Shown: piece after piece, positions 49,551 through 60,402 of the stretch
How the letters are laid out: every line of letters begins with the position of its first letter
How positions within the stretch are numbered: position 1 is the first letter of the stretch
Origin: Escherichia coli 042
GTDB lineage: Bacteria; Pseudomonadota; Gammaproteobacteria; Enterobacterales; Enterobacteriaceae
Assembly: GCF_000027125.1 (NCBI RefSeq)
Contig: NC_017626.1
DNA: 64,000 nt
Reading direction: 5' to 3' (one strand)
Notes under the pieces: model-generated
What the model was told of the DNA's origin: nothing
Database searches by the model: none
Seen by the model: the letters and a program-made list of their open reading frames with translations, nothing else
Program-made: the position numbers and the translations under genes

Positions 49551-50321
49551 TCACTCCACCCCAATCTCCACCCCAATCTCCATCCCATCAAACCCCGCCT
49601 CAAACCCCGACGGCAGTGCGTTTTCCATCAGCCACGCATCAAACTGGTGGCTGATATGGGTCAGAATCACCCGTGGCGAGCGGATAACCTGATTCAGCGC
49701 AAGCACGGTATTTAAATCACAGTGATTACGCGGTGCATCCTCGCGCGGCGGGTGGCTGCAATCAATCACCATTACCTGTGGCTGATTATTGCGTAAAAAT
49801 TTCAGCGTTTTTTCCGGCAGGCCTGCGGTGTCAGACAGCCACGCCACCCGGCTATGTGCCGTTTCCAGTAAATAGCCGAAAGTGAGTTTCGAATGATTGA
49901 GCGGCAGCGGCGTGACCTGTAATCCCTGCAAATCAAACACTACAAACGGTTCCACCGTGTGGCTGAAATCAAGCAGGCCCGGATGTTTAAACAGATCGTC
50001 GCAGCCCTGTTCATCCGGCGGGCCGTAGACCGGGATCGAATCGCCCACGCCCCAGCGCAGCGGAAACAGCCCCTGCACGTGATCCATATGGTAGTGCGTC
50101 AGCAAAAACTGCTGGAACGATCCGGGCGACCAGCGATCGGCGAGATCGTGCAGCCCGGCGTCGATCAGGGTGATCGCGTCGTTAAACTTCACGACGCCGC
50201 TGCATGGCTGGCGGCGATACTGTGGTGAGCGCCGCGCTCTGACGCAGGCCGCGCACTCGCAGCCCCATGCCGGAACGCCCTGTGCGCCGCCGGTGCCGGT
50301 GAGCGTGAGGGTCAGACTCAT
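49551..50321 (-). CDS. phnP: Phosphoribosyl 1,2-cyclic phosphate phosphodiesterase PhnP (256 aa here)
   Basis: Metallo-beta-lactamase motif THYHMDH; C-terminus carries a 12-bp tandem duplication (EIGVEIGVE). Confidence 0.9.
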
Positions 50322-50322
50322 G

Positions 50323-50757
50323 TTACAGCGCCTTGGTGAAGCGGAAGTGACTCTGCTCGTAGCCTTCTCGCAGATAGAAACGGTGCGCGTCGTGGCGCTT
50401 CACGTTGGTCGAAAGCTCAGTCATTTCGGCCCCGGCCTGGCGGGCTTCTTCTTCTGCCCACGCCAGCAACTTGCTACCGACGTTCAGGCCGCGCGCCTGC
50501 GGCATCACCACCAACTCCTGAATTTCGCCGATCCAGTTGACATGATGCAGATGAAACTGCAAATGCAGGCCGATCATGCCGACAACTTCGCCATCCAGTA
50601 GCGCCAGATGGTAGCGCATGTTTGGGTCGCGCAGGTTGGCGTTAAAGCCCACGCGAAACGCGTGGTGGTCAAACTCCGCCTGTTTTAGCTCACAAATCAG
50701 CGCGTAAACTGCGTCGGTGTCGTACTGCGTAGCCGGGCGAAGCTCACAAGCAGGCAT
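50323..50757 (-). CDS. phnO: Aminoalkylphosphonate N-acetyltransferase PhnO (144 aa)
   Basis: GNAT-fold translation [34 protein letters not shown]... Confidence 0.9.
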
Positions 50758-51301
50758 GGTGTTTCTCCTTCTGATGAATCAGCGTCAGCAGCTTGTCGAC
50801 CGACTGGCGCAGGCTGCCGTCATTATTGAGCGTAAGACAATCCTGAGGAGTATAGCGGGCAGCGCGTGCCAGTCGGGCGTTAATTTCACTGGCATTTTCA
50901 CGACCACGGTTTTCGAGGCGCTGGCGCAGGATCTCCGGCGAAACCTGTAAACAAACGGGCAGCAGCGCCGATTGATAGCGCGCCCGCGCCTGCGGCAGAT
51001 GGGCGCGTGAGCCGTTGACCATCACGTCAAATCCAGCGTGCAGCCAGAGGTCAATCTCGACGCCGATGCCATAATACAGGCCGTTGGCGTGCCAGCTTAA
51101 GGCCAGAAGGTTCTGCCCCGCGCGGGTAAAAAACTCCTGCTCGCTCAGGGCGATATGGTTTTCACTTCCGGCGCTGGCGGCGCGCGTGATGTAGCGATGC
51201 GCTACCAGTAGCTGAGTTTGTTCCCGCTGGCGAAGTTCCGTCAACAGACTGTCTTTTCCGGAGCCAGAGGCCCCCATTAACCAAATCAGTTTTCCCGTCA
51301 T
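50744..51301 (-). CDS. phnN: Ribose 1,5-bisphosphate phosphokinase PhnN (185 aa)
   Basis: P-loop [12 protein letters not shown]; overlaps phnO. Confidence 0.9.
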
Positions 51302-52437
51302 CAGAACACCCTTTTACCCTGACGCCAGACGTGGTCGATATGAATGTGGTTGCCCTTGCGATGCGCCAGCACCAGGTCGGCGCGTTTGCCCTCGCCAATC
51401 ACCCCGCGATCCTGAAGATTAAGCGCCTGCGCCGGATTTTTAGTCACCAGCTTCACCGCCTGCGGCAGCGTAAAGCGGTTGCTCTCGTCATCGGCGACGC
51501 GAAATGCCGCATCGAGCAGGCTGGCGGGGTAGTAGTCGGAAGAGAGGATATCCAGCAGGCCAAGCTGCGCCAGTTCACTGGCCGCCACGTTGCCGGAGTG
51601 CGAACCGCCGCGCACGATATTCGGCGCGCCCATCAGCACGTTCATGCCATGCTTGCGCGAGGCTTCTGCCGCTTCGAACGTGGTGGGAAATTCGGCGATC
51701 ACGCTGCCAAGCTGGTGGGATTCGGCAACGTGCGCGTGCGTGGCGTCATCGTGGCTGGCGAGGGCAATGTGTCGCGCGCGGCACATTGCGGCGATGGTTT
51801 CGCGATTTGGCTGCGACCAGCGTGCGGCGAGCGCCAATTGCTCTTCTTCGTACTGCTGCATCTGCGCATCGGTGAGGGAATATTTGCCCTGATAATATTC
51901 GCGATACTTCTCGCGATTGGCGAACTGGCGCTGGCCTGGCGAGTGGTCCATCAGCGATACCAGCGTCACCGGTTCGCGCTGCACCAGTTTTTCAAACAGC
52001 GGCAACGTGGTGTGGTGCGGCAGTTCGCAGCGCAGGTGCAGGCGGTGCTCGGCGCGGTTGACGCCGCGTTTCTGCGTCTCTTCGATGGCGTTGATCATCT
52101 TCTCCAGATTCTCCAGCCGATCGCCGCCGTCGCGCACATCACCAATCGCCACGGCGTCCAGTACGGTGGTGATGCCGCTTGCCACCATCAGCGCGTCGTG
52201 GCTGCTCATCGCCGAATGGGCGGGCCAGTCGACTTTCGGGCGCGGGGTGAAGAATTTATCGAGGTTGTCGGTATGCAGCTCAATCAGGCCGGGTAGTAGC
52301 CAGCCACCTTCGCCGTCCATCGCTTCCGGCTGGCGGCTCTGGCTTTCGGCAAAGGCGCGAATTTCGCCATCCTGTACTTCCAGTGAACCGTGCACCACTT
52401 CGTTTTCCAGCACCAGTTTGACGTTATTGATAATCAT
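51301..52437 (-). CDS. phnM: RPnTP diphosphatase PhnM (amidohydrolase family, 378 aa)
   Basis: Translation [33 protein letters not shown]... Confidence 0.9.
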
Positions 52438-58464: not shown

Positions 58465-58562
58465 GTTTTCTCCCTCTCCCTGTGGGAGAGGGCCGGGGTG
58501 AGGGCATCAGCGTGCGCATTTTCCCCTCATCCTAACCCTCTCCCTCAAGGGAGAGGGGACCG
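58465..58562. repeat. GC-rich double-hairpin palindromic element between phnD and phnE (boxC-like)
   Basis: ccctctccc-tgt-gggagaggg..ccggggtgaggg ... tcccctcatcc..ccctctccc-tcaa-gggagagggg; same motif family as the element at 53148..53220. Confidence 0.7.
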
Positions 58563-58572
58563 ATCGAGCACA

Positions 58573-59589
58573 TTACTGCACCGCTTTACTCACCGAACTC
58601 ATCGCGCTTAACGCGTTGTTCAGGCGGTCCAGGTCATCCAGTTGCGCCTGAATGGCGCTGGTTTTTGCCAGCTTGTCCTGCTCATTCAGCCCTTTATTAC
58701 CTTTTACGCCCTGCATCTCTTTAAACAGTGCGAGTTGGCGAATCGGCACCAGTTGCAGGTCGCTGGAGGCGCGGAACGGGGCCCATCCCAGGCGCTCCAG
58801 CACCGCTTTCTCTTCCGGCGTTTTGCCGTAGTTCATAAAGAAGTCGTAGATCTTGTCTTTGGTGGTTTCGGACAGATTTTTGCGCCAGACGATCGGATCG
58901 CCTGGGATCAGCGGCGATTTCCAGATCACCTTCAGTTCTTTGAGCTTCTCCGGTGCGGAGGTTTTCAGCTTGTCGAGGTTTTCGGTGTTGTTGGTCGCCA
59001 CATCCACCTGTTTGTTGGCGACGGCCAGCGCGTTGGTTTCATGCCCGGCGTTGACGGTGCGCTTGAAGTCGCTGGCGGAGATATTGTTTTTGGCGAAGAC
59101 GTAGTAGCCGGGGACGAGGAAGCCAGAGGTGGAGTTAGGATCGCCATTGCCGAAGGTGAGATCTTTACGCTTCGCCAGCAGATCATTCAGGTTGTTGATC
59201 GGACTGTCTTTGTTGACGATCAACACGCTCCAGTAACCCGGCGATCCATCCGCCGCGACCGTCTGGGCGAAGACCTGACCGTTGGCGCGATCCACCGCTT
59301 CCATCGCCGACAGATTGCCGTACCAGGCGATATCCACTTTATTGAAGCGCATCCCCTGGATAATGCCCGCGTAGTCCGGGGCAAAGAAGGCGTTGACCTT
59401 TACGCCCAGCTTCTTCTCCATATCCTGTAAGAACGGAGTCCATTGCGGTTTCAGGTTTTGCTGTGATTCCGTTGAAATAATGCCGAAATTCAGCGCCTTT
59501 TCCTGCTCTTCGGCGTGCGCCGGGCTTAACAGGGTGCTGAGGCTGAACATGCTGGTGAAGGCCAGCGAGGCAATTATCTTAGCATTCAT
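58573..59589 (-). CDS. phnD: Periplasmic phosphonate-binding protein PhnD (338 aa)
   Basis: Signal peptide MNAKIIASLAFTSMFSLSTLLSPAHA, substrate-binding fold. Confidence 0.92.
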   Translation of the reverse strand: MNAKIIASLAFTSMFSLSTLLSPAHAEEQEKALNFGIISTESQQNLKPQWTPFLQDMEKKLGVKVNAFFAPDYAGIIQGMRFNKVDIAWYGNLSAMEAVDRANGQVFAQTVAADGSPGYWSVLIVNKDSPINNLNDLLAKRKDLTFGNGDPNSTSGFLVPGYYVFAKNNISASDFKRTVNAGHETNALAVANKQVDVATNNTENLDKLKTSAPEKLKELKVIWKSPLIPGDPIVWRKNLSETTKDKIYDFFMNYGKTPEEKAVLERLGWAPFRASSDLQLVPIRQLALFKEMQGVKGNKGLNEQDKLAKTSAIQAQLDDLDRLNNALSAMSSVSKAVQ

Positions 59590-59613
59590 TCGTTTTCCTC
59601 AATGATGGGGATG

Positions 59614-60402
59614 TCAGGCAGCTTTCGCGTTTTCTTCGACGCGGTTGATGCTGCGGTAGAGATGGTCAAAACGTTCGTTATCAAACTGTTGGCTGCTGCC
59701 GTCGTAGAAGACGTGCCCCTGGCGCAGGGCGACGATGCGTTCGCAGTAGCGCAGGGCGTAATCCACCTGATGCAGCGTGACGACCACGGTAATGCCGTCG
59801 TTCTGGTTAATGTCGCGCAGGGTGTCCATCACGATGCGCGCCGATTCCGGGTCCAGCGAGGCGATGGGTTCGTCCGCCAGAATCACCTTCGCCTGCTGCA
59901 TCAGCGCGCGGGCAATCGCCACACGCTGCTGCTGTCCGCCGGAGAGGGTGGAAACTCGCTGATGGGCAAAGTGCACCATGCCAACGCGGGTCAGCGCCTG
60001 TAACGCGCGCTGTTTCTGCTCGCGGGTGAAGTAGCTAAAACAGGTGCGCCAGAATGGCGTGCTGCCGAGCGCGCCAATCAGCACGTTCTCCAGTACGCTC
60101 AGGCGATTCACCAGGTTGAATTGTTGGAAGATGTAGCCGGTATTGGCGCGGCTTTTGCGGATATCGCGGGCCAGGCGGCCTTCGCGCTGGACTGTGCGGC
60201 CCAGCAGCTCGATATGGCTACCGGCAGATTTATCGCCGGTAATCAAACCGCTTAAGTGACGTAAAAGGGTGGATTTGCCGGAACCCGACGGCCCAAGCAG
60301 AGCCACCATTTCACCGTGATGAATGTTCAGATCAACCGCGTGCAGCGCCTGATGCTGATTGAAGGTTTTGGCGAGCTTCTCGACACGGATAATCGTTTGC
60401 AT
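59614..60402 (-). CDS. phnC: Phosphonate ABC transporter ATPase PhnC (262 aa)
   Basis: Walker [10 protein letters not shown], signature LSGGQQQR. Confidence 0.92.

Follow-up and report, generated by a model that had tools for sequence, protein, structure and literature searches.

An intact 14-gene phn operon with an in-frame phnE in Escherichia coli 042

Gene content and layout of the operon

The window analysed here, a 64,000-nt stretch of E. coli 042 DNA, carries on its minus strand (49551–60402) 14 co-oriented open reading frames that the ORF listing places in the canonical order phnC-D-E-F-G-H-I-J-K-L-M-N-O-P. Using the K-12 and PGAP start codons, all 14 begin with ATG and none has an internal stop, in agreement with the initial annotation, which had reported an uninterrupted phnCDEFGHIJKLMNOP. 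Twelve of the genes have the K-12 length, the exceptions being phnE (780 versus 788 nt) and phnP (771 versus 759 nt). Start and stop codons and lengths agree with K-12 and with PGAP-annotated strains, at amino acid identities of 95–100%. In profile searches, every product exceeded the curated threshold set for its particular family model (NCBIfam equivalogs for 12 products, Pfam for PhnI and PhnJ). No cistron contains a frameshift or premature stop and the products are full-length, with phnE in frame and phnP extended in frame by four residues.

The description of the junctions as the usual overlapping ones held for seven of 13. Overlaps of 4 nt were found at G/H, J/K and L/M, of 1 nt at H/I and M/N, of 8 nt at I/J and of 14 nt at N/O. 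The remaining six junctions are spacers of 0–24 nt, apart from the long D/E (125 nt) and K/L (116 nt) intervals; this layout is shared with K-12 and with strains annotated by PGAP. An Rfam scan gave no match within the operon, and scans for promoter-like (6 versus 4.8 expected) and terminator-like (21 versus 13.8 expected) sites returned numbers close to chance. Long antisense frames on the plus strand, such as 51331–52296 and 57656–58501, were set aside as the stop-poor frames commonly seen antisense to coding DNA with about 60% GC, because all sense genes were accounted for.

Import genes, regulator and the phnE repeat

phnC (59614–60402, minus strand) encodes the 262-residue ATP-binding subunit of the phosphonate ABC importer (NF007438, 606 bits against a cut-off of 365; TIGR02315, 348 bits). 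The protein is 98.5% identical to that of K-12 and 100% identical to that of strain EcPF15, and its Walker A, signature and Walker B motifs were all found. The periplasmic phosphonate-binding protein PhnD (338 aa; 58573–59589, minus strand; TIGR03431, 376.5 bits, cut-off 261) shares 99.1% of its residues with K-12, while the GntR-family regulator PhnF (241 aa; 56922–57647, minus strand; NF007486, 519 bits, cut-off 363) is 100% identical.

The permease gene phnE (57668–58447, minus strand) is a single frame of 259 codons and 780 nt with no internal stop, as had been claimed. Its product matches TIGR01097 over residues 16–258 (311 bits, cut-off 217) as well as Pfam BPD_transp_1, and the exact protein occurs on more than 1000 public contigs. 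Around codon 136 lies an 8-bp tandem repeat tract, GCTGGCGT GCTGGCGC (58027–58042, minus strand), present in two copies, the ON form. Aligned with the K-12 allele of MG1655, which has three copies of GCTGGCGT, the window has two, and this accounts for the 780-nt length of the gene here. The annotation had also attributed the crypticity of K-12 phnE to an 8-bp insertion; the third copy seen in MG1655 and the literature (PMC6469041; PMC7566553) bear this out. Three rather than two copies shift the frame (PMC7566553), and function is regained upon deletion of 8 bp (PMC6469041). K-12 crypticity is ascribed solely to the third copy, whose loss restores transport (PMC6469041; PMC7566553), and reversible ON/OFF phase variation of phnE in K-12 is reported by work cited in PMC6469041. 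The two-copy tract is still prone to slippage and can go OFF, so that ON denotes a state and not a fixed property of the strain.

The distribution of phnE alleles was surveyed across complete E. coli genomes, about 5384 of 5426 of which carry the phn operon. A query with the two-copy, in-frame tract matched 3838 of the 5426 and a three-copy, K-12-type query matched 1010. Most E. coli carry an intact phnE, which is no special trait of 042. PGAP flags the frameshifted allele in human stool and seawater isolates from the field; many field isolates belong to the three-copy group, so the frameshift is not restricted to K-12. As a side observation, the K-12-type frameshift is found in roughly one fifth of complete E. 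coli genomes, field isolates included. The spread of phnE alleles may be useful to those who employ phn phenotypes, or responses to fosfomycin or glyphosate, as strain markers.

C-P lyase and accessory genes

The genes that follow phnF encode the C-P lyase and its accessory enzymes, all on the minus strand. The core subunits PhnG (150 aa; 56469–56921; TIGR03293, 177.5 bits, cut-off 89) and PhnH (194 aa; 55888–56472; TIGR03292, 203 bits, cut-off 91.5) both occur as exact proteins in public data. PhnI, a core subunit and ribophosphonate triphosphate synthase (354 aa; 54824–55888; Pfam PF05861, 515 bits), is 98.9% identical to its K-12 counterpart. PhnJ, the radical enzyme responsible for C-P bond cleavage (281 aa; 53986–54831; Pfam PF06007, 500.6 bits), differs from K-12 by three substitutions and retains all five of the residues G32, C241, C244, C266 and C272. 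We take Gly32 to be the site of the glycyl radical, Cys241, Cys244 and Cys266 to hold the Fe-S cluster, and Cys272 to carry the thiyl radical.

Two ABC-type ATPases are encoded next: PhnK of the C-P lyase complex (252 aa; 53231–53989; TIGR02323, 411 bits, cut-off 303) and PhnL of the C-P lyase system (226 aa; 52434–53114; TIGR02324, 369 bits, cut-off 256, matching from residue 1), the latter identical to the EcPF15 protein. Both, like PhnC, keep their ATPase motifs. The ribophosphonate triphosphate diphosphatase PhnM (378 aa; 51301–52437; NF011981, 809 bits, cut-off 375) and the ribose 1,5-bisphosphokinase PhnN (185 aa; 50744–51301; NF007485, 353 bits, cut-off 153) differ from K-12 at eight of 378 and nine of 185 residues, respectively, whereas the aminoalkylphosphonate N-acetyltransferase PhnO (144 aa; 50323–50757; NF007530, 315 bits, cut-off 142) is 100% identical.

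The last gene, phnP (49551–50321), encodes a phosphoribosyl cyclic phosphodiesterase of 256 residues, compared to 252 in K-12 (TIGR03307, 428 bits, cut-off 272). It is 12 nt longer than in K-12 because of a 12-bp tandem duplication (TGGAGATTGGGG, twice; 49559–49582, minus strand) at its 3′ end, which adds EIGV at the extreme C-terminus to give the tail EIGVEIGVE. Apart from the duplication, the protein differs from K-12 by A252E and four other substitutions. Residues 1–251 give a gapless alignment with the K-12 PhnP of known structure (3G1P), the duplication falls beyond the last residue aligned to either the PhnP family model or the crystal-structure sequence, and the metal-binding HxHxDH motif is retained. 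A 301-nt query spanning the duplication found it in none of the complete RefSeq E. coli genomes in the collection; the exact 256-aa protein is present on 94 public contigs, and the allele in loci L005–L010. The 256-codon length, against 252, had been overlooked in the initial annotation.

The phnC promoter and the long spacers

By identity to K-12, the phnC promoter is predicted to contain a PhoB-binding region (Pho box) at 60446–60479 (minus strand), CTGTTAGTCACTTTTAATTAACCAAATCGTCACA. The published 18-mer PhoB motif ATTAACCAAATCGTCACA, defined by ChIP-seq in K-12 (PMC10294691, Table 1), has one exact match at 60446–60463 (minus strand), with 0 expected by chance, and the 132-nt phnC leader differs from that of K-12 by a single base. 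These identities confirm the candidate Pho box that had been placed upstream of phnC. The generic Pho-box consensus CTGTCATAWAWCTGTCAY, searched with up to three mismatches, missed the phnC site and matched only at 25154–25171, outside the operon. The phnC box is known to be divergent, its affinity for PhoB being the lowest among the promoters tested (PMC4447250), and the site was therefore confirmed by its exact match to the motif from K-12 ChIP-seq. In K-12, phnC RNA reads fall from 32,470 in the wild type to 13 in a phoB deletion (PMC10294691). The 64,000-nt window contains no phoB/phoR or pst genes.

Both long spacers hold GC-rich palindromic repeats. The phnD–phnE spacer (58448–58572, minus strand) contains two units (cores at 58472–58492 and 58536–58557) and, as RNA, has a predicted fold of −65.6 kcal/mol (z = −6.6); the phnK–phnL spacer (53115–53230, minus strand) contains one (core at 53172–53194), with a predicted fold of −69.4 kcal/mol (z = −7.1). 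K-12 has a REP pair in both spacers, while the window has another family of GC-rich palindromic repeats; EcPF15 and AF39 likewise have a REP pair between phnK and phnL, unlike the window. An unlikely, speculative reading is that these very stable hairpins in the mRNA (−66 and −69 kcal/mol) function as attenuators or barriers to decay specific to this lineage. Were it true, they would reset how much binding protein is made relative to permease, and how much lyase core relative to accessory enzymes; combined with the 8-bp switch in phnE, they would render phn expression more variable among strains than the K-12 model suggests.

Predicted function and alternative readings

We consider it very likely, on the strength of the sequence, that this is a standard E. 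coli phnCDEFGHIJKLMNOP operon in a functional (ON) configuration. The only known block in K-12, the third phnE repeat copy, is absent here, and the strain should therefore be able to draw phosphorus from phosphonates without first acquiring a mutation. The native phosphonate use predicted in the initial annotation is thereby supported by gene content, order, frames, the two-copy phnE and the PhoB site, as judged against K-12 and the family models. The mechanism proposed below draws on identity to K-12, in which every step has been demonstrated. Under phosphate limitation, phosphorylated PhoB would bind the Pho box at 60446–60479 and activate the phnC promoter, and PhnCDE would import phosphonates and also orthophosphate. 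PhnI, with PhnG, PhnH and PhnL, would join the phosphonate to the ribose triphosphate of ATP; PhnM would remove pyrophosphate; and PhnJ, of the radical SAM type with a 4Fe-4S cluster, would cleave the C-P bond to release an alkane. The resulting cyclic phosphate would be opened by PhnP, with PhnN making PRPP. PhnO would acetylate aminoalkylphosphonates, and PhnF is a putative repressor.

An operon intact on paper might nevertheless leave the strain Phn-negative or leaky through a lineage variant, most plausibly the EIGV duplication of PhnP or missense changes in PhnN, PhnM or PhnP. The altered PhnP tail, the five other differences in that protein, the PhnN and PhnM substitutions relative to K-12 and the absence of the duplication from complete RefSeq genomes could be read this way. 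We nonetheless regard such a defect as very improbable: the duplication lies past the end of the family model and past residue 251 of the crystallised protein, HxHxDH is unchanged, and the allele is found on at least 94 contigs, and in at least 175 index blocks, as part of an operon that is otherwise intact and free of any sign of decay. PhnN and PhnM are, moreover, 98.4% and 99.7% identical to their counterparts in another strain whose operon is intact. The suggestion that assembly or sequencing errors at the repeat tract created the in-frame phnE, or the apparent intactness of other genes, verges on the negligible. Short tandem repeats are prone to miscalls, and split genes appear elsewhere in the region in two long-read assemblies from this lineage (L009 and L010). 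An 8-bp unit is, however, not typical of homopolymer-type errors, exact PhnE is found on the many contigs counted above, and four independent assemblies and one metagenome scaffold show just three to four mismatches to the window in 20,771 nt, all with a 259-aa PhnE. The recurrence of the same allele set in several independent assemblies argues against sequencing artefacts.

The operon could also serve its niche mainly through PhnCDE uptake of orthophosphate or other phosphorus compounds, with the lyase genes merely carried along. An in-frame phnE does let PhnCDE carry enough orthophosphate for growth (PMC6469041), but all ten catabolic genes are intact, at 95–100% protein identity to other E. 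coli and with catalytic residues kept, pointing to evident purifying selection. We consider uptake as the main role extremely unlikely, and phosphonate catabolism and phosphate uptake are not mutually exclusive. With a functional operon as the preferred reading, the strain, like most E. coli, should scavenge phosphorus from methylphosphonate and aminoethylphosphonate and take up phosphate via PhnCDE when phosphate is scarce. An intact phn operon with a working phnE is already known in E. coli and ordinary; K-12 is not representative at this locus, and the significance of the finding extends little beyond correct annotation.

Comparison with known phn operons

The phn operon of K-12 MG1655 (b4092–b4106, NC_000913.3 4314344–4325165) has the same 14 genes, order and junction layout as the window. 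Protein identity is 95–100%, with PhnF and PhnO identical, while nucleotide identity is only 93–97% per gene. In MG1655, phnE is a pseudogene with three copies of GCTGGCGT, compared to two in the window, and phnP lacks the 12-bp tandem duplication. Among wild E. coli whose phnE is intact, strain EcPF15 (NZ_CP054227.1) and isolate AF39 (NZ_OZ547136.1) resemble the window in having all 14 genes intact according to PGAP, with a 780-nt phnE, and differ from it in their 252-aa PhnP, against 256 aa. EcPF15 additionally shares the D-E spacer element, and its PhnC, PhnD, PhnK and PhnL are identical to those of the window. The best overall identity to any complete RefSeq genome is 98.2%, and identity to wild operons with an intact phnE is mosaic along the operon, ranging from 94% to 100% per 500 nt.

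Public sequences of the same lineage are four assemblies (GCA_019210465.1, GCA_900636225.1, GCA_900636275.1 and GCA_034324505.1) and a metagenome scaffold from ERZ28667745, which are 99.92–99.99% identical to the window over 20.8 kb. These five share with it the 256-aa PhnP, the 259-aa PhnE and the yjcS, rpiB-remnant and yjdP flank. They differ from the window by a few SNPs, the long-read assemblies carrying gene-splitting indels, and the K-L spacer of GCA_034324505.1 is 65 bp shorter. All eight Phn proteins that were looked up were found as exact sequences in public data.

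Gene content and conserved residues of the phn operon

The ORF listing of the window holds a minus-strand series that runs without break from 60402 to 49551. Start codons were set by the K-12 and PGAP annotation of EcPF15 (NZ_CP054227.1) and K-12 MG1655 (NC_000913.3), which served as reference loci. On this basis the series corresponds to phnC, D, E, F, G, H, I, J, K, L, M, N, O and P, and the coordinates 49551–60402 given in the initial annotation are exact, with the phnP stop at one end and the phnC start at the other. Gene-by-gene global alignment to K-12 revealed an ATG start in all 14 genes, the same stop codons as in K-12 and no internal stops in any of the 14, bearing out the claim of uninterrupted reading frames. 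Twelve genes have exactly the K-12 length, the exceptions being phnE (780 nt, compared to 788 nt in the frameshifted K-12 pseudogene) and phnP (771 nt compared to 759 nt). The junction layout is also that of K-12, with spacers of 24 (C–D), 125 (D–E), 20 (E–F), 0 (F–G), −4 (G–H), −1 (H–I), −8 (I–J), −4 (J–K), 116 (K–L), −4 (L–M), −1 (M–N), −14 (N–O) and +1 nt (O–P).

Twelve of the products scored above the curated cut-offs of their own NCBIfam equivalog models, often twofold. PhnI and PhnJ had no NCBIfam match at a threshold of E ≤ 1e-10 and were matched end to end by Pfam PF05861 (515 bits) and PF06007 (501 bits), respectively. The Phn proteins are 95–100% identical to those of K-12 (PhnF and PhnO are identical), and PhnC, PhnD, PhnK and PhnL are identical to those of EcPF15. 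Gly32, Cys241, Cys244, Cys266 and Cys272 are retained in PhnJ, as are the Walker A, signature and Walker B motifs in PhnC, PhnK and PhnL and the HxHxDH motif in PhnP.

Judged by identity to K-12, phosphate limitation would lead PhoB~P to activate phnC, and PhnCDE would import phosphonate. PhnI with PhnG, PhnH and PhnL, followed by PhnM, PhnJ, PhnP and PhnN, would convert the phosphonate to PRPP by way of ribosyl intermediates, releasing the alkane; PhnO would deal with aminoalkylphosphonates. These steps are seen only at the level of sequence, from which we infer expression and growth. The observation of an intact operon is confirmed, and its interpretation as native phosphonate use is supported.

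The phnE repeat and the phnC promoter

The alignment of phnE to the K-12 allele, proposed as a check in the initial annotation, showed that the window is without one repeat copy of MG1655. In a three-way alignment, MG1655 reads TTC-GCTGGCGT-GCTGGCGT-GCTGGCGC and the window reads TTC-GCTGGCGT-GCTGGCGC (58027–58042, minus strand), the very difference to which the literature ascribes K-12 crypticity; deletion of GCTGGCGT at ORF position 407–414 restored function (PMC6469041). As described initially, phnE is a single in-frame ORF of 259 codons; its product matches TIGR01097 across residues 16–258, and the exact 259-aa sequence is found on >1000 public contigs.

The 132-nt yjdN–phnC spacer differs from that of K-12 by one base, beside the yjdN stop, and is otherwise identical. 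It contains CTGTTAGTCACTTTTAATTAACCAAATCGTCACA at 60479–60446, the final 18 nt of which exactly match the K-12 PhoB motif, so the candidate Pho box upstream of phnC can be placed on a motif reported beneath a ChIP–seq peak at phnC in MG1655, where deletion of phoB lowered phnC RNA from 32,470 (wild type) to 13 (PMC10294691 Table 1). A scan of the window with a generic Pho-box consensus did not pick up the phnC site, in keeping with a study of five promoters in which PhoB had its highest off-rate, and hence its lowest affinity, at phnC (PMC4447250). A perfect CTGTCAT consensus Pho half-site is located at 60502–60508 (minus strand), ~25 nt farther upstream than the mapped PhoB region and directly following the yjdN terminator-like hairpin, as in K-12.

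Variation in phnP and in the spacers

The additional length of phnP comes from a perfect 12-bp tandem duplication (TGGAGATTGGGG, two copies) at 49559–49582 in the 3′ end of the gene, which changes the tail from GMEIGVA to EIGVEIGVE and gives a PhnP of 256 aa. The duplication lies past the last aligned position of the PhnP family model and past residue 251 of the crystallized K-12 protein, and is expected to be neutral. A search of complete RefSeq E. coli genomes found it in none of them; 94 public contigs, which appear to belong to one lineage, carry exactly this 256-aa protein.

Where K-12 has REP pairs in the D–E and K–L spacers, the window has GC-rich palindromic units of the form CCCTCTCCC–loop–GGGAGAGGG flanked by CCCCTCACCC/GGGTGAGGGG, with cores at 58472–58492 and 58536–58557 (phnD–phnE) and 53172–53194 (phnK–phnL). 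These units appear to resemble the 'box C' repeats of E. coli. Palindromes and REP pairs alike were calculated to give very stable hairpins in the mRNA, at −66 (D–E) and −69 (K–L) kcal/mol in the window compared to −50 and −61 kcal/mol in K-12, and the two kinds of element probably have the same structural consequence.

Lineage and mosaicism

The 12-kb region was matched in 5,423 of 5,426 complete E. coli genomes, the match covering 80% or more of the region in 5,384, and the best identity over the operon among complete RefSeq genomes was 98.2%. An assembly artefact was weighed against six public loci found through the exact 256-aa PhnP. Four are 99.92–99.99% identical to the window across 20.8 kb; L005, of the same lineage, is about 99.9–99.98% identical in two pieces because 65 bp of its K–L spacer are missing. 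L007 has the same PhnP allele at a lower overall identity of 97–99%. Among the near-identical loci are a metagenome scaffold and two assemblies at chromosome scale; the sequence is therefore that of an established E. coli lineage and no assembly artefact. Several exact-match Phn proteins have consecutive CBG372xx accessions, which probably are those of the enteroaggregative strain 042.

Against EcPF15, MG1655 and the isolate AF39 (NZ_OZ547136.1), identity per 500 nt ranged from ~94% to 100% (window 49000–61000). The phnP–phnO segment is ~95% identical to each of the three, phnN–phnL is 99–100% identical to EcPF15 or AF39, and in the flank upstream of phnP the window and AF39 share 99.7% identity; on sequence identity, the operon is a recombination mosaic.

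The D-allose (als) operon of K-12 and EcPF15 is absent at 46563–49118. There, yjcS (alkyl sulfatase, 46563–48560) adjoins the phn locus and rpiB is a remnant, a 105-aa ORF (48801–49118) whose final ~37 residues align with the C-terminus of the Pfam RpiB model, with K-12 rpiB homology starting near 48911. AF39 and other strains are annotated with the same arrangement. On the other side of the locus, Rfam naRNA4 (REP325-derived nucleoid-associated RNA) matched at 61043–61120 (minus strand, 87.5 bits) between yjdN and yjdM. The spacer between these two genes measures 159 bp, against the 657 bp of K-12, and the strain thus appears to have a much shorter REP325 array.

Two- and three-copy phnE alleles across E. 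coli

Two-copy (in-frame, ON) and three-copy (frameshifted, OFF) alleles were counted with probes of 69 and 52 nt, respectively, at coverage of at least 80%. The two-copy probe matched 3,838 and the three-copy probe 1,010 of 5,426 complete E. coli genomes, making in-frame phnE the majority state, as likewise stated previously (PMC6469041). About 570 genomes matched neither probe, perhaps because the flanks diverge or because phnE is disrupted or missing. Among 60 evenly spaced genomes sampled from the 1,010, about one-third were laboratory strains or K-12 derivatives and about two-thirds were field isolates of human, pig, cattle, pet or seawater origin. In two field isolates, 300709 and B19374, PGAP labels phnE 'frameshifted'. 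The intact operon is already known and typical of E. coli, and the three-copy 'K-12' allele is widespread in the species, which may reflect either clonal inheritance or recurrent slippage. Since it occurs in field isolates, 'K-12 is cryptic' is better read as K-12 together with a sizeable group of field isolates being OFF.
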